From Spirochaetia bacterium (GTDB lineage Bacteria; Spirochaetota; Spirochaetia; SP-2023): a DNA stretch of 64,000 nucleotides. This document shows positions 8,479 to 39,931 of this stretch, in pieces. Position 1 is the stretch's first letter. Every line of letters starts with the position of its first letter. The notes under the pieces are model-generated. The model was given only the letters and a program-made list of their open reading frames with translations, searched no databases and had not been told where the DNA came from. Position numbers and translations under genes: made by a program. The DNA lies in assembly GCA_965263295.1 (NCBI GenBank), contig OZ253665.1, positions 608,001 to 672,000 of the forward strand, written 5' to 3'.

Positions 8479-9744
8479 ATGCGGCGATCAAAAGAAGCTT
8501 GCAAGATGCTGGGACTGAGTTTTGCTTCCAGCTCTGTCGGGGCGCTACTGGTTTATCTTGCCATGACGTATTTGCCGGCTCATGGACGCGAGAGCGGAGC
8601 TCGTATGCATGAAGCAGTCGCGGACGACACTGTTGCTGATATTGCGCAGCCCGCGCGGGGAGTTCGGGGTGCAAGTACGCGAGATTCGGCGCAATTGGCC
8701 CAGCTGGCAGGCAGTCGCTTGCAGGCGGGCTACATTGACAATGAGGTCAATAATATCGAAGTATACGAAGAGACGAACCAGGCGGTGGTCAACATAACGG
8801 CCAGGAAGGAGACTCAGGTTTTTAGCTGGTTTTTCGAGCCTATCCCGCGCGAGGACGAAGCCTTTGGGTCTGGTTCAATCATCGATGCCGCTGGCTACAT
8901 TCTAACCAACAATCATGTCGTGCAAAATGCTTCCAAAGTGCAGGTCACCTTGTACGATGGTAGCCAGTTCACGGGAGAAATTGCGGGCTCCGATCCAGAA
9001 AATGACCTGGCCATCGTACGTTTCGCACCCAAGGGTCGCCGGCTCAGCACTATTCGTTTTGTCGAGAACGATAAATTGCAGGTCGGCCAAAAGGTCTTTG
9101 CCATCGGCAATCCGTATGGTTTTGAACGCACCTTGACTGTGGGGATTGTTTCTGGTTTGGGCCGTCCAATTCAAAATGAGAATGGCTTGGTTATTCAAGG
9201 TATGATTCAAACTGACGCTTCAATTAATCCGGGCAATTCCGGCGGCCCGTTGCTGAACTCGCGCGGGCAGATGATTGGCGTCAATTCTTCCATCTATTCG
9301 CCCACCGGCAGCTCGGTGGGTCTGGGTTTCGCCGTGCCCGTCAGTACCGTGCGCCGCGTTTTGCCGGACTTAATTAAATATGGTACTGTGCGACGCGGCT
9401 GGATTGATATGAAAGTGATTCCACTGTTTCCACAATTAGTGCGTTACAAGAGACTGCCGGTCGAAAAAGGCCTACTGGTATCTGAGGTTTTAAAGGGCAG
9501 TGAGGCGGATAAAGCGGGCTTGCAGGGCGGACAGCGCAGTCAGGCCGTGCGCAGCGGCAAGGGTGTCATCTACCTGGGCGGCGATATTATAACCCAGATC
9601 GGCGATATAGAGGTGTCCAGCATGGCCGATTTATATTCCGCGCTGGAGCCGACTCATCCCGGCGACAAGCTGCAAATGACGGTCTACCGCGATGGCAAGA
9701 AACGAGAATTTGAAATCAGGCTCAGCGAGCGTAAGAGGAATTGA
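8479..9744 (+). CDS. htrA: HtrA/DegP-family serine protease with a single PDZ domain
   Basis: N-terminal hydrophobic anchor. Triad motifs LTNNHVV, DLAIV and QTDASINPGNSGGPL. C-terminal PDZ (GDIITQI). Confidence 0.93.
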   Translation: MRRSKEACKMLGLSFASSSVGALLVYLAMTYLPAHGRESGARMHEAVADDTVADIAQPARGVRGASTRDSAQLAQLAGSRLQAGYIDNEVNNIEVYEETNQAVVNITARKETQVFSWFFEPIPREDEAFGSGSIIDAAGYILTNNHVVQNASKVQVTLYDGSQFTGEIAGSDPENDLAIVRFAPKGRRLSTIRFVENDKLQVGQKVFAIGNPYGFERTLTVGIVSGLGRPIQNENGLVIQGMIQTDASINPGNSGGPLLNSRGQMIGVNSSIYSPTGSSVGLGFAVPVSTVRRVLPDLIKYGTVRRGWIDMKVIPLFPQLVRYKRLPVEKGLLVSEVLKGSEADKAGLQGGQRSQAVRSGKGVIYLGGDIITQIGDIEVSSMADLYSALEPTHPGDKLQMTVYRDGKKREFEIRLSERKRN

Positions 9745-9787
9745 TTTTCGTAAATTCCCGTAAATTCTCGTGCACAGAGTGGAATTG

Positions 9788-9812
9788 GTTATTCTGAAAG
9801 GCATTCAGAGTA
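9788..9812. terminator. Hairpin downstream of htrA, possible terminator
   Basis: TTATTCTGAA-aggca-TTCAGAGTAA inverted repeat with one G-U pair. Confidence 0.4.
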
Positions 9813-10227
9813 AGAATTTTATCTCCGATATGGCTCGGCAGTGCTCGTCTTGTCTGTTGCTACTGCAGCTCGTGTCGTGCTGCGAGTTGCGGATGCTTTC
9901 GTGTGGCGGCAATTTCTTCTTTTTCTCCGTCCCATCCTGAGTTGCGGGTCTTGGCCCGTTTGTGGTTTCACTTGTTGAGCCGGAGGGTGGAAAATCATGG
10001 CAAGACCTTTTGCGCTTAAAAGCATCCCAAAACACATCCATACACATCCATTGGAAAATTTTTACAGTTCTCATTGTTTTTTGTTTGTGTTTTTATGGCG
10101 AATATGTTAAGTTTTTAATCTGTCGACCGAATAATGAGCATTTTTTATTTGCCCGTTGTTTTAGGCCGGCGGCCGACAGCATACTCAAGTGTACGTCTGT
10201 CTATTCTCTCAAATAGATGAGTATATC

Positions 10228-13200
10228 ATGGAAGAGCAATCAGATAGTGTTTCTGAGGCGCAAGACAAAGAGCTTGCAGATCAGTTCATTCGAGCACAAA
10301 TTCCGGCGTTAAGGGGAGCTGCCGGCCCGGGCCCGGAGCGGCGGTCGGGGGGCAGCAAGGCGCACAAAACCAACCCCTCTCAATTATCTGTCCGGCTGCC
10401 TCAATTGATGGAGGCCACGAGCGACAAGCCTAGTGCTGTAATTGAACATTTGCGCACGCATTACGCCAACTACCTGGTTCTCGGCAGCTCCATGAAGTCT
10501 GCGCCCGTGCCGCTGGCAGCGGGTGCGCCGGCAGCTCTGCACAGCGGGGTTGCCGTGCTGTTTCAAGAACTGTTGCACAACAGCATCGACGAGTACTTGC
10601 AGGGGCACGGAAAAGTCATTGATGTATTGTGCAGCACTGAAACCATTACCATTCGCGACTACGGCCGGGGCATCCCGCACCCCCGGCTGCGGGCTGAAAT
10701 TCAGGAACTAGGCCAAAATCAAAAATTTAACAGCCCGGACTTGCGGTACTGTGAGGGGCTCAGCGGCTTGGGATTGAAGCTGGTCAATGCCTTGAGCAGT
10801 CGGTTTTTATTGCGTTCTTACCGCGTCAATCGCTTTGCCGAAATTGAAACGGCGCAGGGTAGAATTCTGCGTGATCGCCGTGGGCGCTGTAACAAGGAAG
10901 ATGGCACTTTTATCCGTTTTACGCCGGATCCAGGGATTTTCGCCGCGCAGTCAGTTAGTGTCGCAAAGTTATTTGATGTGCTGTGTAAAGTTTCAGCCTT
11001 GTTCCCTGGCTTGGAGATTCGCTTGAATCAAACTCATGTCATCAAGCAAAAAGGGGTGGGAGATCTATTTCAGTCGCTGCCGCAATGGCGCAAGCTGAAT
11101 TATTTATATGGCGCCCGCAGCCTGTCTGGGCGGGCTTGGCAGCTGGGTTTTGCCCATTTGTCTGAGTGGCAGAACAACGATGGCGGCTTGCACAATGAGC
11201 GTCTGGTGCAGAGTTTTGTCAATGGCCATGCCTGTGCCGGCGGTATATCGGGTGGGCTGCATGTCAGACAATTGCAGGGTGCATTTCTCGGAGCTCTGCG
11301 CGAAGTATTTCCAGACAGGGTTGCGCAGGTTAATGCTTTCTGGGACAAGGGGATCACTTTATTCTGGAGCTTGAGCCTGGTGGAACCAAGCTTCCAGGAC
11401 TTGGGTAAAACGCAGTTGACTGGCGCGGAGAGCGAAGTTTCGAGCATTGCCTTGGAGTGTCGCCAGCAGCTGTGTGAGCTTTTTGAGCGGGACGGCGAGC
11501 TAAAGACACAGCTGGAAAAATTGCTTGGCGATTGTGAAGCCGCCGAGGAACGCGACGAATACAACCTTTGGCAATCTCGCCTCTCTGGTGAACTGTTGCA
11601 AACAGAAGAGCGCACTCGCCAGCTGGAGCAGACACTAGAGAACTCGGAGCACAAATACAATGTCTTGAATGACGATTTGCATACGGCCCGCGAAGAGAGC
11701 GAAGAGATGCAGAAACATTGGAAAGATGTTTCCAGCCAGCTCGTCATGGATATGGAACAGGCTGAAAATGACCTGAATGAGTTCAAAAAGCTGCAGCGTG
11801 CCGAGCAACGCCGTTACCGCAAGGAACAGGAAAAGCGCCTGCAGAACCTGGAAGAGGAACAGCAGCTCTATCAGAAACTCAAGGATGGCGTGCGAGAGCA
11901 AACTAAGGAATTGTTAAATAAAGAATCTCAGCGTCAGCAATTAATTGATAGTGGTCTAAATAACTGGAACAGTTTGCAAAAATCTCTGGAAGAGGCCAGT
12001 ACTTTACAAAAGCAACGTGATTTGGAGCAGGAGCAAATTCTGGATTATCTGCGCGGTGCCAAGGCTTCGACGGAGACCGAAGTCGGGATTGTGCAGCAGA
12101 ATATCAAGCTAGCCGAACAAAAGATGTTGCAACGGCAGGAAGCCTACTTAAAAAACTTGCAGGACAATGCCCGCGAAGAATTTGATACGATTCATGATGA
12201 GATTGACAGCCACAAACAGGAATTGCGCAAAGTTCTGACGGAAGAGCAACGCAAGGCGGATGAGAAGCTTGAAGTTTTGCACAAGCGCCTGGACAAGAAA
12301 ATGCAGCTTGAAGATCGGCGTTGGCAGGAGCAGCTGGAGCAGGCGGGAAAAAGTTCGGCACAAGAGTGGCAACAAAGTTTAAATCGCCGTCGTGACGCGT
12401 TGGAACGTCTGGATCAGAATTGGCGTGAGCAGGAAGCTGTGCTGGAGGAACAACGTCAGAAGCAGCGGAGCTTTATCGAGCGTTGGCGCGAACGCTTGGT
12501 CGACGGGCGCCGTGAAGTGCAGGCCCATCAGGATGCGCAACGCGAACTGGTTCGCAATCGTAAAGAATTGCAGGAGTTTTTTGAGGGGCAGAAAAGAGAG
12601 CGCGACGATCAGGCTAGAAAATGGCAAGACTGGCTGGAGCAGAACCGCAAGGAACTGGCTGAGAACCAAGAGTTGACGAATAAACAGCTTGCCAGTCAGT
12701 ACGAGGCCCAGAAAGAGCAACAGGAGGACTGGGATCGGCGTATAAATGAGCAGGGAAAGGAGATGGAAACGCTGCGCAGTAGGCAGCTGGAGGCACTAGA
12801 ATCCCTGGGTACGCGTCTGGAGCGTGAGGTGGAACAAGAGGTTCAACGTCGCTTGAAGGATTGGCTGAAGAATATGGAGCGGCTTGGCCGCGAAGGTGAA
12901 GAGCATTTCATCGTCGAACAGAAATTACTGCAGACGAAGCAGCAGACTCTAGAAAATGAATTGGCTTTGGTGCAACAGGAAAAAGATAAGCTGTGGCAAG
13001 GCTGGACTCAAGAGCTGGAAGGAGCCAAGGGGGAAATGGCTCGCCAACTGGAAGAGAAGCAGACAGACTGGCGACAGAAGCAGGAGGCGCTGCAGAGCGA
13101 CCTGGAACAGGTGCAGAGTGAAAAAGAAAAATTGTGGTCGCAGTGGCAGAGGGACTTTGGCAATGCCAAGGAGGAAATGACTTGCCAGTTGGCTAGACGC

Positions 13201-15105
13201 AAAGAAGAATGGGAACGGCGCCAGGAGACCTTGTTGCAAGAATTTGAAAGACACCTGGAAAGTCTCAAGCAGAAGCAGTATGCCCAGCAGCACCGCATTG
13301 AAGAGACCCAGACAGAGCAGATGAAGACACTAAAACAGTTGCAACAATGTCAACGTGATGCAGATGAGCGCATGGGTAACCTGAATAAGGATCTGCTCAG
13401 TTATACCGCAGAACTTCGCAAGGAAATTGAAACTTCAATGGCTGAATTGCGCAACAATACCGATCACCAGTTTGCCCAGGTTGAGCAGTGTGCTCAGGAT
13501 CAGGCTCTCCTCTATCAGCAAGGCCTGCTGGAGAGGGAACAGGAAAGTCGGGAATTGCTGGATAAGTATCGGGAGAATTTTGATCAAAAACTGGAACAAC
13601 GATACCAGGATATGAGTCAGTGGAGTGAAAGCTTCGTCCAGCGCTTTGATGAACAGAAGCAGGCTTTGCGCGAAAGCCTGGAGGAGTTTGGCAAGGGCCT
13701 GAAAGAAGAACAGGAAGCCAATTTAATACAGGAGCTGGAGTCTCGCAATGATAAATTTCGGGCGGAACAGAGTGGCAGGGAAAAGCAGGCCGCCCAGGAA
13801 GCCCAACGCAAACGCAATCAGTTCTGGCGTGAACAGCAGCTTGACGCTCAGCAAGAGGCCCAACAGCAACGTCAGGAATTTCAGGATTTACATAAGCAAC
13901 TGCACAATACAATGGAGCGCGAGCGCGAGCGCGTGCAAAAGGAATTGGACTATTTGCAACAGTTGGCACAACAGCAGGAAGAAAGTCTGGAAAGCCTGAG
14001 TCAAAGCTTGGCGCGCGATGTTGAACAGCGATCTGAACATTTGAAGAAAGACATGGAGGAGAACTACCGGCAGTTTCACGAAGAAATACTGGGTAACACC
14101 CGCGAGCTCCATCAGATGAATTCTGAAGAGCGTAAGACTTTGCGTGACGATCTGGCCAAGATGCAGAGCGATGTAAAAGAACTGAATGCCAATATTGGCT
14201 TGTCGGAACAGGCCTTGCAGACTGTACAAAAGGCTTTGCCTGACAGCCTGAAACTCCAAGAGAGCCTAGATAAATTAGCGGGAAAAGAGAAATTGCTGCA
14301 TGAAGTTGAGCGAGAGATCACGCAGTTGCAAAGTACCTTGAATGAAAACAGTCAAATTGGCCAGAAGACTTCTGAACAATTGGCGGCTCTGTTGGCCCGT
14401 CGCAACGAACTGAGTGATATTGAGCAGCAGATGGGGCAGATACTCAACCTTTCTGGCGACCTGTATCAACAGCGTGAAAGTCTGGACCAGCAGCAAAAGC
14501 GTGTCGCCGGCTATCAAAATCAGCTAGACAAGCTAGAGCACCTGTACAAAGAAAGCAGTGACTTGCTGGAGCTTTTTGACGAGCGCAAAAATCAAATGCT
14601 TGAGGCAGCTTCATTGCTAAACGGTTACAGTGAAGATCTGGGTAAAATGGATGAGAAAATCCAGGTCCTACAGGAGCAACTGCAGCCGTTGGAACTGAGT
14701 TTTGGCAAAGCCCAGGACTTGCAGCAGGAGCTTGTAGGACAACAACAACAGTTACAGAGTACCCAAGAAGAGCTAGAGCACATGCAGCAGGCCTTGGGCG
14801 AACTGCATGAGGATAGCCAAGGCATAGACAAGATGCGCGACTGGATTGCGAAGACGGAAACACGAATGCTTGAATTGTCGCAGGATATTCAGGAAAACTT
14901 GCGTACCGTAGAGACCATAGTCCGCAAGAATCGTCCCGGCGAGCGAAATTCGCACAGCGGGTTAGGCAAGGTCGATAATGATGTGCGCAATACAGTCGTT
15001 CAGTTGTACAATAAAAACTGGATTAGCAGTGAGATAGCCCGTGCTACACAGCTGAGTGTGGGCGAGGTTGAACTGATCTTGGAAATGCTGCCTTCAGCTT
15101 CCTAG
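10228..15105 (+). CDS. ParE/GyrB-like GHKL ATPase + transducer fused to a very long coiled coil with SpiroCoCo-like C-terminal HTH
   Basis: GHKL motifs ELLHNSIDE, IRDYGRGIP, GLSGLGLKLVNALS and DGTFIRFTPD. Transducer SFVNG...GGLH...PSFQDLGK. Then ~1100 aa of E/Q/L/K/R-rich heptad sequence, ending VVQLYNKNWISSEIARATQLSVGEVELILEM. First ATG is at 10228. Confidence 0.88.
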   Translation: MEEQSDSVSEAQDKELADQFIRAQIPALRGAAGPGPERRSGGSKAHKTNPSQLSVRLPQLMEATSDKPSAVIEHLRTHYANYLVLGSSMKSAPVPLAAGAPAALHSGVAVLFQELLHNSIDEYLQGHGKVIDVLCSTETITIRDYGRGIPHPRLRAEIQELGQNQKFNSPDLRYCEGLSGLGLKLVNALSSRFLLRSYRVNRFAEIETAQGRILRDRRGRCNKEDGTFIRFTPDPGIFAAQSVSVAKLFDVLCKVSALFPGLEIRLNQTHVIKQKGVGDLFQSLPQWRKLNYLYGARSLSGRAWQLGFAHLSEWQNNDGGLHNERLVQSFVNGHACAGGISGGLHVRQLQGAFLGALREVFPDRVAQVNAFWDKGITLFWSLSLVEPSFQDLGKTQLTGAESEVSSIALECRQQLCELFERDGELKTQLEKLLGDCEAAEERDEYNLWQSRLSGELLQTEERTRQLEQTLENSEHKYNVLNDDLHTAREESEEMQKHWKDVSSQLVMDMEQAENDLNEFKKLQRAEQRRYRKEQEKRLQNLEEEQQLYQKLKDGVREQTKELLNKESQRQQLIDSGLNNWNSLQKSLEEASTLQKQRDLEQEQILDYLRGAKASTETEVGIVQQNIKLAEQKMLQRQEAYLKNLQDNAREEFDTIHDEIDSHKQELRKVLTEEQRKADEKLEVLHKRLDKKMQLEDRRWQEQLEQAGKSSAQEWQQSLNRRRDALERLDQNWREQEAVLEEQRQKQRSFIERWRERLVDGRREVQAHQDAQRELVRNRKELQEFFEGQKRERDDQARKWQDWLEQNRKELAENQELTNKQLASQYEAQKEQQEDWDRRINEQGKEMETLRSRQLEALESLGTRLEREVEQEVQRRLKDWLKNMERLGREGEEHFIVEQKLLQTKQQTLENELALVQQEKDKLWQGWTQELEGAKGEMARQLEEKQTDWRQKQEALQSDLEQVQSEKEKLWSQWQRDFGNAKEEMTCQLARRKEEWERRQETLLQEFERHLESLKQKQYAQQHRIEETQTEQMKTLKQLQQCQRDADERMGNLNKDLLSYTAELRKEIETSMAELRNNTDHQFAQVEQCAQDQALLYQQGLLEREQESRELLDKYRENFDQKLEQRYQDMSQWSESFVQRFDEQKQALRESLEEFGKGLKEEQEANLIQELESRNDKFRAEQSGREKQAAQEAQRKRNQFWREQQLDAQQEAQQQRQEFQDLHKQLHNTMERERERVQKELDYLQQLAQQQEESLESLSQSLARDVEQRSEHLKKDMEENYRQFHEEILGNTRELHQMNSEERKTLRDDLAKMQSDVKELNANIGLSEQALQTVQKALPDSLKLQESLDKLAGKEKLLHEVEREITQLQSTLNENSQIGQKTSEQLAALLARRNELSDIEQQMGQILNLSGDLYQQRESLDQQQKRVAGYQNQLDKLEHLYKESSDLLELFDERKNQMLEAASLLNGYSEDLGKMDEKIQVLQEQLQPLELSFGKAQDLQQELVGQQQQLQSTQEELEHMQQALGELHEDSQGIDKMRDWIAKTETRMLELSQDIQENLRTVETIVRKNRPGERNSHSGLGKVDNDVRNTVVQLYNKNWISSEIARATQLSVGEVELILEMLPSAS
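12937..13218 (+). repeat. Two tandem 141-bp (47-aa) repeats in the coiled coil
   Basis: KQQTLENELALVQQEKDKLWQGWTQELEGAKGEMARQLEEKQTDWRQ is followed directly by KQEALQSDLEQVQSEKEKLWSQWQRDFGNAKEEMTCQLARRKEEWER. Confidence 0.85.
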
Positions 15106-16090
15106 GTGAGTGCGGTATGATTTCAGGGCTCCACAGTTCTTTACGTGAAATACGGAATTGTAGGGTCAGGCCGAAGCTGAAACCGGTTGTATCTTCGTCT
15201 ATGGTACCTAATTTATCTAGAGAGAGGCCAAAAGGCATGGCTTCAAAGTAGAACCCGGCGGCGACGCGACGATATACGGTGAATTTTAATTTAAGTCCTA
15301 GACCTAGAAACATTGCCGAATAGTTACTATCCGTAATGCCTTGGCTGAAAATAAAAGCATTTGAAAGGTAAAAATCTAACAAAAGAAAGCGGGCCGGTGC
15401 CGATCCGCCAAACACTAGATTATTTTGTATCTGTATCAGGCCAGGGCCGGTGGCGCCTGCGTCAAAAAAGTTAAAACTTCCTGTGATGCCAATGCGCAAC
15501 TGAGAGATCATAAACAAAGCTTTTAAATACAAATACATATTGCGGTAGTCAGTATCGCGAGCATTGTTGATGGTATTGGTCAGAAAGGTCCCTTCAAGTT
15601 GCAGTTCCATCAAACCTTGCAAATTATAATAGACCCTAATGTAAGGGCCAAAACCAAACAGATTAGGTCGGCTTTCACTGGCCAAAGTGTATTCTTGGGC
15701 CGGACCAAAGAGCAAGCCAACGTTTTCATTGCCTATGCCAAACGCAAAATTACTTTGTTGATTGCGCAGGTTATTAAGTAGCAACTGAAAATGAAGCACA
15801 TAATTGTTGTGCAATACAAGCAGGGCCTCAAGGTCGCCCTGAGGCATCATGGCATAACGACTTAAAGCTACTTCTTCGGCAAATACAAAGTAGCCAGGGG
15901 TCTCATTGGTATCTCTAGTGGCAAAGTTACTCATGCCTGTCGAGATATTGAGAAGTAAGAGTGGCTGATATTGAAAAGAATGAGCGGATAGAGATTGGGG
16001 CCATTGGGCCGACAGCAGCAGGCCTAAAGTCAGGCTATAGTGCAGCTGTGGGTGGGGCGACTTGTGGCCACTAATTTTAATAGCTTTCAT
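15044..16090 (-). CDS. Hypothetical exported protein, putative outer-membrane beta-barrel
   Basis: Signal peptide (..SLSA|HS). Many Gly/Phe/Tyr alternating strands. ATGA overlap with the upstream M15 gene. Confidence 0.6.
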   Translation of the reverse strand: MKAIKISGHKSPHPQLHYSLTLGLLLSAQWPQSLSAHSFQYQPLLLLNISTGMSNFATRDTNETPGYFVFAEEVALSRYAMMPQGDLEALLVLHNNYVLHFQLLLNNLRNQQSNFAFGIGNENVGLLFGPAQEYTLASESRPNLFGFGPYIRVYYNLQGLMELQLEGTFLTNTINNARDTDYRNMYLYLKALFMISQLRIGITGSFNFFDAGATGPGLIQIQNNLVFGGSAPARFLLLDFYLSNAFIFSQGITDSNYSAMFLGLGLKLKFTVYRRVAAGFYFEAMPFGLSLDKLGTIDEDTTGFSFGLTLQFRISRKELWSPEIIPHSPRKLKAAFPRSVQPRPHSAV

Positions 16091-28296: not shown

Positions 28297-30441
28297 TTAC
28301 AAAACTTCTGCCGTTTCTTTGAGATTCTGAATGATAAATTTCCTGCGCTGGGGTGTGTTTTTTCCCATGTAAAACGCCAATATATCAGGGATGCTGTGCA
28401 TTTTAAACGGTTCGACATTCACCGGAATCAAGCGTATTTTTTCATCGATAAATTGCCCAAATTCCTTGGGAGAAATCTCACCTAGCCCCTTAAATCTTGT
28501 AATTTCTGGGCTAGAAAGTTTCTTGATCCAGTGCTTGCGCTCTTCTTCGTTGTAGCAGTAGTGGGTTTCCTTGCTGTTGCGCACACGAAACAGCGGTGTT
28601 TCAAGGATAAACAAATGCCCCGCCTGCACTAGTTCCTCAAAGTAGTGCAGGAAAAAAGTCATCAGCAAGTTGCGAATGTGGTAACCGTCATCATCGGCAT
28701 CTGTGGCCAGAATAATTCGATCGTAGCGCAACTGATCGGTGCCATTCTCCAGCCCCAGGGCTTTGAGCAGGTGAAACAATTCTTCATTTTGATAGATCTC
28801 TGCCGTACTGCGCCCGAAGCAATTCCAGGGCTTACCGCGCAAGGAAAACAAGGCCTGGCAGTAGACGTCGCGACAAGAGACCAGAGAACCCGTGGCCGAC
28901 TGGCCCTCAGTGAGAAAAATCATGGTCGGTTTATTTTCCCGCATGGCCTTTTTGGGGCGCTTGTCGCCGCGGTGATATTTGCAGTCGCGCAGCTGGGGGA
29001 TGTTCAGGGTCAGGCGCTTGCCGGATTCGCGCATCATTTTGCGCACACTTGAAAGCTCTTTGCGCAACTTCTCGTTTTGCTTAATTTTCTCTCCGAGCTT
29101 TCGTGCCAAATCTTCGTTGCGATAGAGCAGGTCGGCGGTCATCTTGCGGACTTGGGCGGCGATCGGGCCGCGCAGCTCAGTACTGCCCAATTTGTTCTTG
29201 GTTTGGCTCTCAAAAATCGGATTTTTGACTTTGACTTTAATTGCGGCGACCAAGCCGTCGCGAATGTCTTGCGCGGTATAGGTGGTCTTGTAGAAATCGT
29301 TGATACCGCGCGTAAAACCTTCGCGAAACGCCTGCAAATGGACGCCGCCATCGACAGTGAATTGGCCATTGACAAAAGAAAAGTGCGTTTCACCAATTTG
29401 CTGCGTGTGGGTGAAGGCAAATTCAAGCCCTAGATTTTCGTCCCCCCGGTGTTCATCCCTGTTTTTATCTTTGGTGGGTTCGGCCCTCATGGATTCTTCA
29501 TTTCTGCGGGCATCACTTTGACAGCGCATGATCTGATACAGGGTCCCACTCTGAAGTTCGCGCTGCAGCAGGTCCTGCAGGCCGTGCCGGCTAAAGTAGC
29601 GCTCGGTCTCGCCGGCGACTTGCATTGTCAATTGCAGTTCTGGATTCAGGCAAGAGTAATGAAAAAACCGATTTTGCAGGAATTCTAACTGGAAAGCGAA
29701 TGGGCCAAAAATTTCATCGTCGGGCCAAAATTCGACGTATGTTCCATTGGCTTCATTTGTCGGCCCCTGGTTTTGGCGCTGCAATTTACCTCGGACAAAT
29801 ACGGCTTCGGCCATTTGACCGTCGCGGTAGGCTCGCACCAGAAAATGCGCGGAAAGTGCGTTTACGGCTTTGGCGCCGACACCGTTGAGACCGACAGAAA
29901 ACTGAAATACGTCGTCGTTATATTTTGCCCCGGTATTGATGACGGAAACGGCCTCGACAATTTTGCCCAAGGGTATACCGCGGCCGTAGTCGCGCACCGA
30001 GATGAGGCCGCTGCTGGCTCTGCGTTTGCGTTTGCGCTGCTTTTCGTCTTCCGACTGCCAAGCGGCCGGCGCATCGGTTGGGGCCGGCACATCCGCTGGC
30101 TCTGCGTCAGAGGGGCTTGCTCCATCATCGCTAGCCGGCACAGATTCTGCGCCGCGCCCCGTCGCCGCATCCGCAGATTGGGGGCGAATGAGCGTCAGCC
30201 GGCTGCCGTCTGCGTAACTTTGCTCTAAATGGATTTCAATGTGCTTGCCTTGGCCCATGATATATTCATCGATTGCATTGTCAACGATTTCCTTGAGCAG
30301 GATATAAATACCGTCTTCGTAGTGTTCGCCGCCGCCCAGGCGGCCAATGTACATCCCTGAGCGCAGGCGAATATGCTCTAGGGCTTCCAGAGTCTGAATT
30401 TTGCTCTCGTCGTAATTATTGTCCGTTTCTTTGGCAGGCAT
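28297..30441 (-). CDS. parE: DNA topoisomerase IV subunit B
   Basis: LEHIRLRSGMYIG, EIVDNAIDE, RDYGRGIP, GLNGVG, FESQTKNKL, TOPRIM TEGQSA and ATDADDDG, RFKGLGE, MGKNTPQRR. Start at ATG 30441 after AAAGGA. Confidence 0.92.
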   Translation of the reverse strand: MPAKETDNNYDESKIQTLEALEHIRLRSGMYIGRLGGGEHYEDGIYILLKEIVDNAIDEYIMGQGKHIEIHLEQSYADGSRLTLIRPQSADAATGRGAESVPASDDGASPSDAEPADVPAPTDAPAAWQSEDEKQRKRKRRASSGLISVRDYGRGIPLGKIVEAVSVINTGAKYNDDVFQFSVGLNGVGAKAVNALSAHFLVRAYRDGQMAEAVFVRGKLQRQNQGPTNEANGTYVEFWPDDEIFGPFAFQLEFLQNRFFHYSCLNPELQLTMQVAGETERYFSRHGLQDLLQRELQSGTLYQIMRCQSDARRNEESMRAEPTKDKNRDEHRGDENLGLEFAFTHTQQIGETHFSFVNGQFTVDGGVHLQAFREGFTRGINDFYKTTYTAQDIRDGLVAAIKVKVKNPIFESQTKNKLGSTELRGPIAAQVRKMTADLLYRNEDLARKLGEKIKQNEKLRKELSSVRKMMRESGKRLTLNIPQLRDCKYHRGDKRPKKAMRENKPTMIFLTEGQSATGSLVSCRDVYCQALFSLRGKPWNCFGRSTAEIYQNEELFHLLKALGLENGTDQLRYDRIILATDADDDGYHIRNLLMTFFLHYFEELVQAGHLFILETPLFRVRNSKETHYCYNEEERKHWIKKLSSPEITRFKGLGEISPKEFGQFIDEKIRLIPVNVEPFKMHSIPDILAFYMGKNTPQRRKFIIQNLKETAEVL

Positions 30442-30583
30442 TCGCATTCCTTTACTGGCTAGAAAATAATAGCACCAAGGCATTGATAACAGAAATCTGA
30501 CGGCTTGCCAAGCCCCGGGTTTTCACCTGTTGCCTTTGTGAATAGTTTAGGTCAGGCAAACATACATTTCGGCTCGCGCCTAC

Positions 30584-38095: not shown

Positions 38096-39931
38096 TCAAT
38101 TCTTTGTTGCGGGATTGATTCGGGAATTTGATTCATTCGGGCCAGATGAGAGATGAGAAATGGGGTGAGAAATAAGGCGACGGCTTCGCCTGATGGCATG
38201 GACATACCAGGCAGATTTACGGGCGCGGTAAACTAGTGTCAAGCGGTCCCGATTGTGATAGTGCAACGGCTGCAAAGCTTGCGGCATTGGCTCCAGCTTG
38301 TTGCTTGCCTTGGCTCTAGAAGTTTCAACACTTTGGCTAAACGTGCCGGGCAGCCAAATATCGTATTCAGCATGCAAAACGATTTGCATGCCATCTCGCA
38401 AGGATCTCTGTTTGGCAGGAGCTTCCAGGGCCAATTGTCGCTGACCAAGGTCAGTAAAGTGTCTTTGAATATCTAATCCACTGATGCCATAAGGTACGTA
38501 TTTAAGGCTAAGGGCAGGGATCGGACTGCCGGGGGCTGCCGATAGACCTTCTTGTTCGAGCCAGGTTTTGACACGCAAAACAACGTCTCGACCTTCGTAT
38601 CCGCGCCGAGCCTGAGTCTGGACAAAGAGCATCGTCAGCATATTGCTGTCTGTTTTGACCGTTGGACCGCCCCGATAGCTCAGCTGGCTCTGGCGTTGTG
38701 GATTGAGCTGATCAATAGATTGATAATAGAATTCAGTGACTTCGTAGGCGCTAAAACCGCTGTGTGGCGGCGGGCTTAGTGCCCGCTTTAGCGGTGTATA
38801 AGCCACACTGAAAAGGAAAATACTCAGTAGAGCAAAAATTGTAACGATGCCGCGCTTTCTGTGCCAGAAGTCCTGATACTGTAAAATCCGCTCGCGCCTG
38901 CGGCACTCGCGTTTCAGCTTGGAACTCAATTGCTGTCGTTGCTTTTCGCTACAGTCGCGCCACAAATCTGGAATCTCGCGCCATGCACTCAGGTCGGGAA
39001 GCGGTTGTGAATTCTGTTTACTCCTGCGGGATGCAGATTGCCTGGAAAAGTATTTGGAGACGCAGAGCGTTTCTTGCAATATTTTATCGTAAGTATTTGA
39101 AAGTTCTGGCCGAAACAGCTGAGCCCTGATATAAACACTGCCGCCCCCGCGCCAAGTTTGTGCCTCATCGTGCGGTGGCTCTTCACTGACGGCAGTGTTT
39201 TTTGATTGCGCGGAACCGAGTTTTGCAGGGAAGGGCAAGTCCCCGCAAAGCTTTAGGTAACTTAGGGTCGCGAGGGCATATGCCCAGATCTGGCTGTTAT
39301 GATCGCCACGGCAAGCGCTGGCCCGCAGATTTTCTCGCTGTTGGCACCAGAGCTGCTGTTGTATAAACATTTGGTCGGGCCGGCACTGGGACACGAAGTG
39401 GCACAGCTCCGGCGGCAACAGCAGAAACCGATAAGTAGTTTCTGAGCGCCAGCAGAGTAGGCTATCGCAGATGGCGCTGGCAAAGTGATAGCCATGTTTA
39501 TTTTCATATTGCCGACAAATAGCTTGTAAAAAGCCGACTAAGGATTGGAGGAATGCAATTTGCAAAAATTCGCAATTGTCCAATACATTAATGGATCGGA
39601 CTTGATGGCCAACTTCGCGCAGCACATCTATATGGGCCGAGGCGTAATACATTTCTTGGGTTTCGGCTGTGGCCGTGCTCGTCGTCTGGGCTTGGCTTGA
39701 TGCTTGGCTTGATGTTTGGCTTGGCGTTTCGCTGCGACTAACAAAGTTTGCAAATCGCCACTCCTGTAACTGCCAGCTGCCGTCAGCAGCCTGCTGCCCC
39801 CAGTAACCGGGAATTTTGTGGAGCTTCTGTCCTTGGCCGCGCAGCATGCGCTTCCACTGGCTGGCCTGCCCCAGTTGCCATTCCAAGCAGCCGGACTCAC
39901 AGTGCAGGACAAACGGCGAGGGAGCGCGCAT
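38096..39931 (-). CDS. Hypothetical single-pass membrane protein
   Basis: 611-aa ORF 12 bp downstream of aroC, with one TM helix (GIVTIFALLSIFLFSVAY). A kinase C-lobe-like YLKLCGDLPF segment is present but no catalytic kinase motifs. Confidence 0.7.
   Translation of the reverse strand: MRAPSPFVLHCESGCLEWQLGQASQWKRMLRGQGQKLHKIPGYWGQQAADGSWQLQEWRFANFVSRSETPSQTSSQASSQAQTTSTATAETQEMYYASAHIDVLREVGHQVRSINVLDNCEFLQIAFLQSLVGFLQAICRQYENKHGYHFASAICDSLLCWRSETTYRFLLLPPELCHFVSQCRPDQMFIQQQLWCQQRENLRASACRGDHNSQIWAYALATLSYLKLCGDLPFPAKLGSAQSKNTAVSEEPPHDEAQTWRGGGSVYIRAQLFRPELSNTYDKILQETLCVSKYFSRQSASRRSKQNSQPLPDLSAWREIPDLWRDCSEKQRQQLSSKLKRECRRRERILQYQDFWHRKRGIVTIFALLSIFLFSVAYTPLKRALSPPPHSGFSAYEVTEFYYQSIDQLNPQRQSQLSYRGGPTVKTDSNMLTMLFVQTQARRGYEGRDVVLRVKTWLEQEGLSAAPGSPIPALSLKYVPYGISGLDIQRHFTDLGQRQLALEAPAKQRSLRDGMQIVLHAEYDIWLPGTFSQSVETSRAKASNKLEPMPQALQPLHYHNRDRLTLVYRARKSAWYVHAIRRSRRLISHPISHLSSGPNESNSRINPATKN

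Follow-up and report, generated by a model that had tools for sequence, protein, structure and literature searches.

The locus described here raises the question of whether a ParE-like ATPase head and a long spirochete helical rod truly form one protein and, if so, where the head came from and what such a protein might do. The window (the whole stretch of DNA analysed, 64,000 nt from a Spirochaetia bacterium) contains the fused gene and an ordinary parE, which were delimited as follows, with the evidence for each in brackets.

10228..15105, plus strand: whole fused gene (single ORF, 1625 aa plus stop, ATG at 10228)
10228..10542, plus strand: N-terminal extension, residues 1–105 (model pLDDT, identity, alignment with ParE)
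10543..10962, plus strand: GHKL ATP-binding domain, residues 106–245 (Pfam HATPase_c, residue table, fold match)
10963..11487, plus strand: transducer domain, residues 246–420 (parE_Gneg match, alignment, model and Foldseek)
11488..14127, plus strand: helical rod, residues 421–1300 (model helix 423–490, Pro count, a/d periodicity)
14128..14907, plus strand: coiled-coil part of SpiroCoCo_C, residues 1301–1560 (NF047515, heptads, alignment with 20 homologues)
14908..15102, plus strand: C-terminal tip, residues 1561–1625 (identity of 80–84%, model, VIA, DUF6115)
28297..30483, minus strand: the window's own ParE, 728 aa, with all four Pfam domains (domain scans, BLASTP, alignment)

The fused gene and its distribution

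The earlier note had read the gene as one uninterrupted frame, and this is borne out by the ORF of 1625 aa; an alternative GTG start is found in the same frame at nt 10189 (ORF 10189/10228..15105, plus strand). All four genomes of the genus carry the fused gene, with open frames of 1562–1604 aa in the orthologues (G001–G003), and beyond the genus the fusion was seen in a few metagenome clusters only. Both ends (head and rod C-terminus) are present on six of eight related metagenome clusters, the remaining two being cut by short contigs, and the architecture that the earlier note proposed to seek in related genomes was thus recovered in 4/4 genus genomes and six full-length metagenome clusters. 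One strain variant has an in-frame deletion of 120 nt within the rod (11488..14127).

That two separate genes were joined by an assembly or annotation error can practically be dismissed. The junction is covered in one piece by contigs from 4/4 runs (3 studies), so that the mis-assembly against which the earlier note had warned was not encountered; the same frame is open in the genomes of four species and in the six full-length metagenome clusters, and in the AlphaFold model a single helix spans the junction without a break. The fusion is real, and the protein is a new domain architecture assembled from known families. The earlier note knew of no description of it, and none was found in a literature search. 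Queries for SpiroCoCo, and for spirochete coiled-coil combined with GHKL, returned nothing, and those for coiled-coil paralogues of the GyrB ATPase domain returned papers which, by title and abstract, deal with ordinary gyrase and topoisomerase IV only. Papers retrieved for spirochete coiled-coil protein and nucleoid were unrelated by title, and searches on DUF6115 and on the locus name BB0512 gave no match.

The fused gene is solitary in the genome and has been conserved throughout the genus, and its neighbourhood suggests neither an operon partner nor a pathway. No ORF of at least 120 aa within about 6–8 kb on either side is common to any two of the four genomes, and in all four the gene is unlinked to parC or parE. 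Promoter and terminator scans of nt 9600–15500 returned sites no more frequent than in shuffled sequences.

A ParE-like head

The fused protein begins with a family-specific extension. Residues 1–62 and 87–104 are predicted to be disordered (pLDDT <50) and are poorly conserved, residues 70–86 form helices corresponding to the LEHIR helix in ParE, and in the alignment a family-specific [KR]-P motif replaces the Tyr-bearing N-terminal strap of ParE. Pfam HATPase_c then matches residues 110–232 (29.2 bits, cut-off 26.4), and NCBIfam parE_Gneg matches residues 111–401 with an E value of 2e-23 and 82.7 bits, which is below the equivalog cut-off of 723.35. Neither Toprim nor DNA_gyraseB_C was found in the Pfam scan of the fused protein, and the same library finds both in the window's ParE. 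The AlphaFold model of residues 1–491 (pLDDT 84.5, pTM 0.76) has its best PDB matches, by Foldseek, among the 43K ATPase fragments of GyrB and ParE (E 7e-25, TM 0.71–0.75, target-normalised). By sequence the closest solved structure is E. coli ParE 43K (E 1.6e-18, versus 1e-13 for GyrB). The domain matches and the fold thus agree with the suggestion of a ParE-type head without TOPRIM and tail. The profile scan returned HATPase_c and SpiroCoCo_C and no Toprim, as the earlier note expected, but DNA_gyraseB (the transducer), also expected, went unreported at E ≤ 0.01. The transducer carries two family-specific insertions, and in the model its helix 401–421 runs on into helix 423–490. In a protein atlas only short, TOPRIM-less GyrB-like clusters came up (scores ≤0.85), which are best regarded as leads; a long match, P0040 (1311 aa), is an unrelated GyrB–GyrA fusion.

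The intact parE noticed some 13 kb away lies 13.2 kb downstream of the fused gene and encodes all four Pfam domains. Its GHKL domain carries an extra acidic stretch of about 70 aa, the ParE of this genus being unusual in having 60–75 aa inserted there. The resemblance of the head to this ParE, first seen by eye, is confirmed by BLASTP (25% identity over 319 aa, E 2e-22, plus a 27-aa segment of 44% identity), and all five motif pairs quoted in the earlier note were recovered in both the BLASTP and the MAFFT alignments. In the tree the head falls on the ParE side of the ParE/GyrB split (support 100/99), and the fused clade lies outside the spirochete ParE clade on a stem of 2.22 substitutions per site. 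The head is thus no recent duplicate of the neighbouring parE, although the AU test does not reject its derivation from within spirochete ParE (p 0.349). Each genome of the genus retains ParE, ParC, GyrA and GyrB alongside a canonical, membrane-anchored SpiroCoCo protein.

Given this affinity, the head might pair with the real ParE ATPase, or recruit ParC/ParE, and so place or restrain topoisomerase IV along the rod. The position in the tree, the presence of ParE, ParC, GyrA and GyrB in the genome, and the unusual insertion in the genus ParE are in keeping with such a role, but identity to the organism's own ParE is merely 25%, the N-terminal strap, which in ParE mediates dimer contact, has been replaced, and the gene is linked to neither parC nor parE in 4/4 genomes. 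Moreover, ParC and GyrA bind the TOPRIM and tail parts of ParE and GyrB, and since both are missing here the recruitment of ParC proposed in the earlier note lacks a basis. A modulator of topoisomerase IV is, on balance, very improbable.

The residues expected of the ATP site are E114, N118, D144, R147, G148, the lid glycines G177/G180/G182 and T227 in the GHKL domain, and K394, the Lys of QTK, in the transducer. Ten positions (E114, N118, D121, E122, D144, R147, G148, G177, G180 and G182) are kept in 11/11 fused members, G146 in 10/11, T227 in 9/11 (Val in 2/11) and K394 in 10/11 (Arg in 1/11). The Gln of QTK is lost in 11/11 and is the sole consistent loss from the ATP site. The alignment and residue table therefore uphold the earlier reading that the catalytic Glu, the Mg-binding Asn and the transducer Lys are kept while QTK has become LGK, with Leu at the Gln position. 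Because this Gln is lost and the Tyr-bearing strap replaced, catalysis and dimer contact of the head may differ from those of ParE.

Synonymous sites among the four genomes are saturated (pS 0.63–1.03) and dN/dS could not be computed for most pairs, so that pN/pS and identities were used instead. The head has a pN/pS of 0.17–0.26, indicating purifying selection and not the neutral drift that the earlier note had considered. Amino-acid identity across the four genomes is 70–79% in the GHKL domain, 65–78% in the transducer, 51–62% in the rod and only 20–35% in N-terminal residues 1–75; conservation is highest in the tip, at 80–84%.

These data bear on the view that the head is a pseudo-enzyme, binding nucleotide or nothing and serving as a mere folded cap or interaction domain, ATP turnover having gone with the Gln of QTK. 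The loss of that Gln in 11/11 members, the scattered changes at T227 (Val in 2/11) and K394 (Arg in 1/11) and the very long stem leading to the clade (2.22 substitutions per site) would suit it. The retention in 11/11 of the catalytic Glu, the Mg-binding Asn, the adenine-binding Asp and three lid glycines would be unexpected had catalysis been abandoned, and in GyrB mutation of the Gln of QTK cuts activity far less than mutation of the Lys. A pseudo-enzyme is accordingly judged quite improbable.

The charge of the head sets it apart from its relatives. Fused heads are basic (pI ≥ 8.46 in 9/11), whereas those of ParE (pI ≤ 7.2 in 12/12) and GyrB (pI ≤ 6.4 in 14/14) are acidic.

The SpiroCoCo rod and tip

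Recognition of a SpiroCoCo-type C-terminus in the earlier note was correct, as NF047515 (SpiroCoCo_C) matches residues 1305–1618 with 129.9 bits (cut-off 125) over model positions 2–313 of 313; in the whole-genome scan the fused protein scored 135 bits. Across the phylum, 242 of the 251 genomes sampled encode SpiroCoCo_C, in open frames of up to 9,123 codons. The genome's own canonical paralogue (894 aa) has an N-terminal hydrophobic segment, i.e. a membrane anchor, as do 17 of 20 other SpiroCoCo proteins sampled phylum-wide, so that the anchor described in the earlier note is a recurrent feature of the sample, being no part of the NCBIfam model. HATPase_c was found in none of 19 SpiroCoCo proteins scanned. 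The fused protein starts with a disordered extension and the ATPase and has no membrane anchor; its head thus occupies the place of the canonical anchor. Five matches were obtained to proteins shorter than the fused one that share its C-terminal part, none with an informative name.

The rod is acidic, rich in Glu, Gln and Leu, and continues directly from the last transducer helix. No Pro occurs in residues 421–1337, and a/d occupancy is 0.557 compared with 0.425 ± 0.009 in shuffled sequences. The coiled coil of about 1100 aa described previously stands as some 1,140 helical residues after the transducer, ending in SpiroCoCo_C, but not as a coiled coil throughout: in a crude, home-made periodicity analysis clear heptads (period 3.5) were confined to residues 1331–1540, and residues 631–1330 gave a period of 3.6–3.67. 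Since most of the rod has the latter period, it may double back or rest along a surface and not form one long two-stranded coil; fully extended it could, by simple arithmetic, reach about 170 nm. The rods of other SpiroCoCo members resemble apolipoprotein-type amphipathic repeats. Two further matches to the protein were discarded. A defence-system reading was rejected because the PADLOC matches (JetC, LmuB) are at the level of the rod only, and a PDB profile match, 8vd6 'CAP REPEAT' (E 1.4e-6), was set aside as it consists of five identical weak repeats (i-E 7–55).

The tip contains a three-helix, HTH-like unit (about residues 1583–1621) with the motif W..EIA..T.LS.GEVELIL, its helices modelled at a pLDDT of about 90. 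VIA aligned it with the HTH of Tn3 resolvase (Z 7.3, rmsd 2.3, 46 residues), below the caution line of Z 8, the match to DUF6115 is sub-threshold (25.1 bits, cut-off 27), and Foldseek gave no match to the tip below E 0.3. The HTH proposed at this end is therefore a candidate tri-helical, HTH-like fold. The stretch is acidic (net −3, pI 4.4) and its third helix, consensus GEVELIL, is without a basic residue. Tethering of DNA through the tip is doubtful for these reasons, and an acidic tip offers no argument for a bridge from DNA to DNA.

Alternatively, the protein might be an ATP-regulated scaffold with no role at DNA, a soluble counterpart, switched by nucleotide, of the membrane-anchored SpiroCoCo cytoskeletal element, in which ATP in the heads would only switch self-association or bundling of the rod, as in dimerisation of the Hsp90 or MutL type. 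The occurrence of SpiroCoCo_C in 242/251 genomes of the phylum suggests a core structural role of the family, the canonical form is also kept in 4/4 genus genomes, the acidic tip is an unlikely DNA binder, and the rods of other members have apolipoprotein-like repeats, this rod having a period of 3.6–3.67. This scaffold would leave unexplained, however, why the head is basic, unlike the acidic heads of ParE and GyrB, and why identity stays at 65–78% across the whole transducer, which in GyrB and ParE lines the DNA cavity. We consider a scaffold of this kind rather unlikely.

Possible function and comparison with known systems

Our preferred reading is that an ATP-operated dimer clamp, a ParE-type N-gate, sits in place of the anchor on a SpiroCoCo rod; it is held tentatively, at a probability of roughly 45%. 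The N-gate module (GHKL domain plus transducer) would have replaced the membrane anchor of a SpiroCoCo protein, a spirochete-specific helical rod. Two chains would be paired along the rod, most firmly at the heptad coiled coil of SpiroCoCo_C, and binding of ATP would then bring the two heads together, in the manner of GyrB/ParE, MutL, Hsp90 and MORC, giving an ATP-operated clamp at one end of the rod. The conserved tip would presumably dock to whatever the corresponding tip of the membrane-anchored, canonical paralogue binds. Such ATP-gated dimerisation is inferred; a dimer prediction (two copies of residues 62–491 with 2 ATP and 2 Mg) gave a score of 0.00 and a mark of 0.42, evidence neither for nor against it.

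The weakest step of the clamp proposal is the nature of the cargo, for which DNA is the leading guess because the head has turned basic while ParE and GyrB heads are acidic. The fuller version, in which the heads close round a DNA duplex and the rod tip links that DNA to the structure contacted by the membrane-anchored SpiroCoCo, is unlikely. If true, it would put a type IIA topoisomerase N-gate to work outside a topoisomerase for the first time, and would amount to a spirochete-specific, ATP-gated tether from the nucleoid to a long-axis scaffold, acting in the placing or segregation of chromosomes in very long, thin cells.

Whatever its cargo, the ATP gate of a type IIA topoisomerase, known from a DNA-passing machine, is here separated from the parts that cleave DNA and maintained by selection in another protein context, which indicates that it can be put to use on its own as a nucleotide switch or clamp, much in the way of GHKL modules of the MutL/MORC type. 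The fusion is also an entry point to the SpiroCoCo family. With an ATPase standing where the membrane anchor would be, this paralogue suggests the N-terminus to be the 'attachment' end and the conserved tip the 'business' end. Aminocoumarins target the ATP pocket of GyrB and ParE, and the head retains that pocket, so that in these organisms it may act as an off-target of the drugs.

Among known systems, the head is nearest to the 43-kDa N-terminal fragment of ParE/GyrB, with which it has in common the two-domain fold and the ATP-site residues, including the transducer Lys. It is closer to ParE in lacking the GyrB-specific insertion after GRGIP and in grouping with ParE in the tree. Unlike either enzyme, the fused protein is without TOPRIM, tail and partner A subunit, and is therefore unable to cut or pass DNA; it has also lost the Gln of QTK, has its strap replaced behind a disordered extension, and has a basic, not acidic, head. 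With SpiroCoCo proteins (NF047515) it shares a C-domain above the curated cut-off, the tip motif and a long helical rod. Canonical members, in contrast, begin with a membrane anchor and an FRQLDxxNRS motif where the fused protein begins with the ATPase, and between its C-domain and that of the canonical paralogue in the same genome identity is only 27%.

The likeness to MORC and SMC proteins put forward in the earlier note holds as an analogy of layout but not as membership. SMC, Rad50 and MukB likewise have a terminal ATPase on a long helical rod, but theirs is a split ABC head and not GHKL, and the fused protein has no hinge; SMC/Rad50/MukB models matched the rod only, and weakly (18–24 bits against cut-offs of 567–1087), and no hinge family was reported in the Pfam scan. 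Like MORC, SMCHD1 and paraMORC, the fused protein combines a coiled coil and a distal module with a GHKL ATPase that has a second domain of S5 type. The GHKL domain is, however, of the topoisomerase B-subunit type and not the MutL/MORC type (its best matches are GyrB/ParE, and HATPase_c_3 was unreported at E ≤ 0.01), CW and hinge domains are lacking, and the rod, some tenfold longer, comes after the transducer instead of being inserted in the GHKL domain, so that no descent in common with MORC is implied beyond the GHKL superfamily. For MORC, SMCHD1 and paraMORC the proposed principle, as outlined in two papers (PMC5811534, PMC2292703), is ATP-driven dimerisation of heads on a constitutive dimer.

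Architecture and distribution of the fused gene

The fused gene combines a ParE-type GHKL ATPase head with a helical rod and a SpiroCoCo C-terminal domain. The features of the window concerned here are:

10189/10228-15105, + strand: fused gene, one uninterrupted frame
15044-16090, - strand: 348-aa ORF, converging on the fused gene and overlapping its last 62 nt; no family in Pfam or NCBIfam
28297-30483, - strand: ParE, 728 aa, with DNA_gyraseB, Toprim, HATPase_c and DNA_gyraseB_C
38096-39931, - strand: 611-aa ORF, unmatched in Pfam and NCBIfam

Counted from the ATG at nt 10228 the fused protein has 1625 aa, and an alternative GTG 13 codons upstream is possible. The stretch preceding the ATG (nt 10189-10227, and the same place in loci L015-L017) translates as ..IDEY.M.. 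in three of the four genomes of this genus and as ..SEYTM.. in the fourth, suggesting either that translation truly begins further upstream (here at GTG 10189) or that a nucleotide signal is conserved at this place. The earlier note had predicted HATPase_c and DNA_gyraseB, no Toprim and a SpiroCoCo C-terminus. In Pfam, HATPase_c (residues 110-232; 29.2 bits, cut-off 26.4) is the one match of substance, and Toprim and DNA_gyraseB_C are absent. In NCBIfam, SpiroCoCo_C (NF047515) matches residues 1305-1618 (129.9 bits, curated cut-off 125) and parE_Gneg matches residues 111-401 (E 2e-23, 82.7 bits, cut-off 723).

A mis-assembly at the junction, which the earlier note had wished to see checked, is extremely improbable as the origin of this architecture: Logan contigs from all four runs (three studies) span the head-rod junction in one piece. 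Compared over nt 10100-15200, two of these are free of differences from the window (one of the two may be the source of its DNA), one has 16, and one is a variant 4-5% different. This variant, from run X5, lacks an in-frame 120 nt (40 codons) of the rod (nt 12936-13055), so that rod length is polymorphic, and has in-frame deletions of 6 nt and 3 nt near nt 10331-10347, in the N-terminal extension. A contig of run X3 ends at nt 10237 with 23 letters that match nothing in the window; these resemble a library or amplification adapter, and a transcript end at this point was set aside.

The proposed search for the same architecture in related genomes was productive. When the 390-aa head was compared in six frames with 61 genomes, long open frames (1562-1646 codons) were found in 4/4 genomes of the genus. 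The other 57 gave no head-matching frame above 744 codons, their best matches being GyrB and ordinary ParE, the latter about 600 aa long with E from 1e-23 to 9e-38. A word-indexed search of 5.8 billion proteins added eight clusters (55-69% identity, 1190-1617 aa), all with a parE match; SpiroCoCo_C is above cut-off in six, and the remaining two are truncated, lying on contigs of 4.2-4.6 kb. An exhaustive HMMER pass over 1.84 billion representatives gave three clusters (E 4e-182 to 1e-126) and then, after a gap, a 625-aa ParE-like protein (1.4e-35). Relatives exist in public databases, one labelled only 'ATP-binding protein, partial'. The fused architecture is thus real, conserved, and confined to one genus-level clade and a few metagenome relatives.

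Many matches of 300-420 aa (P0014, P0016, P0022, P0032, P0034, P0050 and others) cover the GHKL and transducer part only, and atlas clusters of 311-483 aa carry HATPase_c and DNA_gyraseB alone. Some of these short proteins may be contig fragments, and others free-standing, TOPRIM-less GyrB-like proteins.

No two of the four genomes have a flanking gene in common, promoter and terminator scans at the locus were at chance level, PADLOC gave rod-level matches only, and nothing in the context of the gene suggests a mobile element or defence island.

The ATPase head and its origin

All of the motif pairs by which the earlier note had likened the head to the ParE of the window recur in the BLASTP alignment of the two proteins (25% identity, E 2e-22, across 319 aa, and 44% in a further segment of 27 aa). 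Residues 1-491 were modelled with AlphaFold2 from a 36-row alignment (mean pLDDT 84.5, pTM 0.76; residues 1-62 and 87-104 below pLDDT 50), and among PDB folds the model is closest to the GyrB and ParE 43-kDa ATPase fragments (E 7e-25; TM 0.71-0.75, normalised to target). By sequence, the closest solved relative is E. coli ParE 43K (1s16, E 1.6e-18), followed by GyrB (1e-13).

All 11 fused members retain the catalytic E114, N118 (Mg), D121, E122, D144 (adenine), R147 and G148, as well as the lid glycines G177, G180 and G182. G146 is found in 10/11, T227 in nine (Val in the other two), and the transducer lysine K394 in ten, the eleventh having Arg. Two residues before K394, a Gln present in 12/12 ParE and 14/14 GyrB rows is missing from every fused member (L, P, S, A or N instead). 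Instead of the Tyr-bearing N-terminal strap of ParE there is a conserved [KR]-P motif, preceded by a disordered, poorly conserved extension, and unlike ParE the fused family has two short transducer insertions of its own.

Across the four genomes amino-acid identity is 70-79% in the GHKL domain, 65-78% in the transducer, 51-62% in the rod, 20-35% in the first 75 residues and 80-84% in the tip. The comparison with neutral evolution that had been proposed gave a pN/pS of 0.17-0.26 for the head, the one ratio obtainable because synonymous sites are saturated (pS 0.63-1.03); the head is under purifying selection and clearly not drifting. Judged by sequence, this ATP-binding module is of ParE type and has lost a single Gln from an otherwise intact catalytic set. 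That the head is a pseudo-enzyme serving as a cap is improbable; the lost Gln may be set on its side, and the retained catalytic residues on the other.

A tree of 48 rows and 312 columns (IQ-TREE, LG+C20) unites all 11 fused heads in a single clade (100/100), whose stem is very long (2.22 substitutions per site). At the split between ParE and GyrB (100/99) this clade goes with ParE, and the 12 spirochete ParE sequences form a clade of their own that excludes it (99/95); constraining fused heads and spirochete ParE to one clade cost 2.05 log-likelihood units and was not rejected (AU p 0.349). The head shares with ParE the absence of the GyrB-specific insertion after GRGIP. Tree placement and the missing insertion together support the description 'ParE-derived', and the 'repurposed paralogue' of the earlier note stands to that extent, but not as a recent copy of the neighbouring parE. 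Since the same genome also encodes GyrB and two GyrA/ParC-type genes, none near the fused gene, besides ParE, the fusion is an extra paralogue, not a replacement.

In ParE of this genus the first helix of the GHKL domain is separated from the RDYGRGIP strand by an acidic, Pro/Ala-rich insertion of 60-75 aa, and in that of the window roughly 27 aa are also inserted in the transducer; both insertions are missing from ParE of eight other spirochete families. Because of them the ParE of the window matches the fused head less well (E 3e-23) than foreign ParE does (down to 9e-38).

The rod, the tip and the SpiroCoCo family

Transducer helix 401-421, the last of its domain, runs on into a single helix (423-490) in the model, and the sequence is free of proline from residue 421 to 1337. 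A home-made measure of coiled-coil character, the best-register filling of a/d positions with hydrophobic residues, gives 0.557, against 0.425 +/- 0.009 in shuffled sequences. The hydrophobic period is 3.6-3.67 over residues 631-1330 and 3.5 over 1331-1540. A continuous helix joins the head to a very long helical rod with heptad coiled coil near its far end. The rod is strongly acidic (net -47 over residues 421-1300), and its approximately 1,140 residues at 0.15 nm each would, by calculation, reach roughly 170 nm as a fully extended helix.

The last 45 or so residues have the consensus R..V..L..GW...EIA..T.LS.GEVELIL. This tip is conserved and common to the fusion and its membrane-anchored paralogues, and it is modelled as three short helices (pLDDT about 90). 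VIA-align placed it on the tri-helical HTH of Tn3 resolvase (Z 7.3, rmsd 2.3, 46 residues; a Z below 8 may reflect a common arrangement only) and on those of small terminase, Myb, IstA transposase, sigma region 4 and ParB/KorB; Foldseek gave no match below E 0.3. The tip is acidic (net charge -3, pI 4.4), its third helix has two Glu and no basic residue, and in Pfam it matches DUF6115 below threshold (25.1 bits, cut-off 27). The HTH tip of the earlier note thus survives as the description of a predicted fold; given the low Z, the Foldseek result and the charge, DNA binding by it is doubtful.

Of 251 genomes taken from across the phylum, 242 have SpiroCoCo_C (E <= 1e-10; 186 above cut-off), usually as a single copy, in open frames of about 750 to 9,123 codons. 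Rod length varies more than ten-fold: in one family (G166, G132, G219 and other genomes) the domain ends frames of 7,000-9,123 codons, and in another, frames of 2,172-2,523 codons. Two families have paired genes about 4 kb apart on the same strand:

G114:C6:9361-14225; G077:C28:21315-26207; G102:C8:90117-95200; G145:C10:101476-106491; G161:C261:42380-47840: tandem SpiroCoCo_C genes

Besides the fusion, the window's genome encodes one canonical SpiroCoCo protein, of 894 aa, and the other three of the genus likewise have one of each; the two genomes of the sister family have ordinary SpiroCoCo only. The C-domains of the two paralogues in the window's genome share only 27% identity (E 1e-17), which makes the duplication an old one.

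The N-terminal membrane anchor that the earlier note gave for ordinary SpiroCoCo proteins is borne out: 17 of the 20 members sampled, from across the phylum, start with a hydrophobic segment, after which comes a conserved FRQLDxxNRS..K motif. Of the rest, one giant has no such segment at its estimated frame start, and two could not be judged (one masked, one cut by a contig end). In canonical members (L057-L076) the juxtamembrane motif FRQLDxxNRSxEKVxRY directly follows the anchor and lies outside the NCBIfam C-terminal model. Neither HATPase_c nor DNA_gyraseB was detected (E <= 1e-4) in the 19 N-terminal regions scanned, whose only matches are to helical repeats of apolipoprotein type, one of these exceeding its cut-off. 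The ATPase of the fusion therefore occupies the usual place of the anchor.

Proposed working and comparison with known systems

GyrB/ParE, MutL, Hsp90 and MORC, GHKL proteins whose heads are paired by ATP, offer a model for the fused protein. By analogy, two chains would pair along the rod, ATP would draw the two heads together, and closure would create a small ring with the transducers and the beginning of the rod as its border. The cargo could be DNA or another polyanion, possibly the protein's own acidic rod; the sole hint is that fused heads are basic (pI at least 8.46 in 9/11; at most 7.2 in 12/12 ParE and 6.4 in 14/14 GyrB heads). This reading as an ATP-operated clamp is tentative as a whole (probability about 0.45), and DNA as its cargo is less probable still. 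A nucleotide-switched scaffold with no role on DNA is unlikely, yet the strongest of the rivals; it would accord with the acidic tip, and the basic heads point the other way. The recruitment of ParC suggested earlier has no structural footing, since ParE holds ParC by parts that the fusion lacks. A modulator of topo IV, for which the ParE ancestry of the head might speak, is accordingly a very improbable role.

The earlier note knew of no description of this fusion, and none was found in the literature searched, outside which most subscription journals lie; the same literature yielded no paper on SpiroCoCo, DUF6115 or a spirochete coiled coil combined with GHKL. By title and abstract, work on the GyrB ATPase domain, coiled coils and paralogues concerned only ordinary gyrase or topo IV, and the architecture was absent among the matches listed for GHKL, coiled coil, bacterial and MORC. 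The protein is a new domain architecture assembled from known kinds, of narrow distribution, and may have been described elsewhere. It belongs to SpiroCoCo through its C-domain, and its head is a derivative of ParE but not a ParE. The likeness to SMC is one of outline and that to MORC and MutL-type clamps would be one of working; it is a member of neither group.
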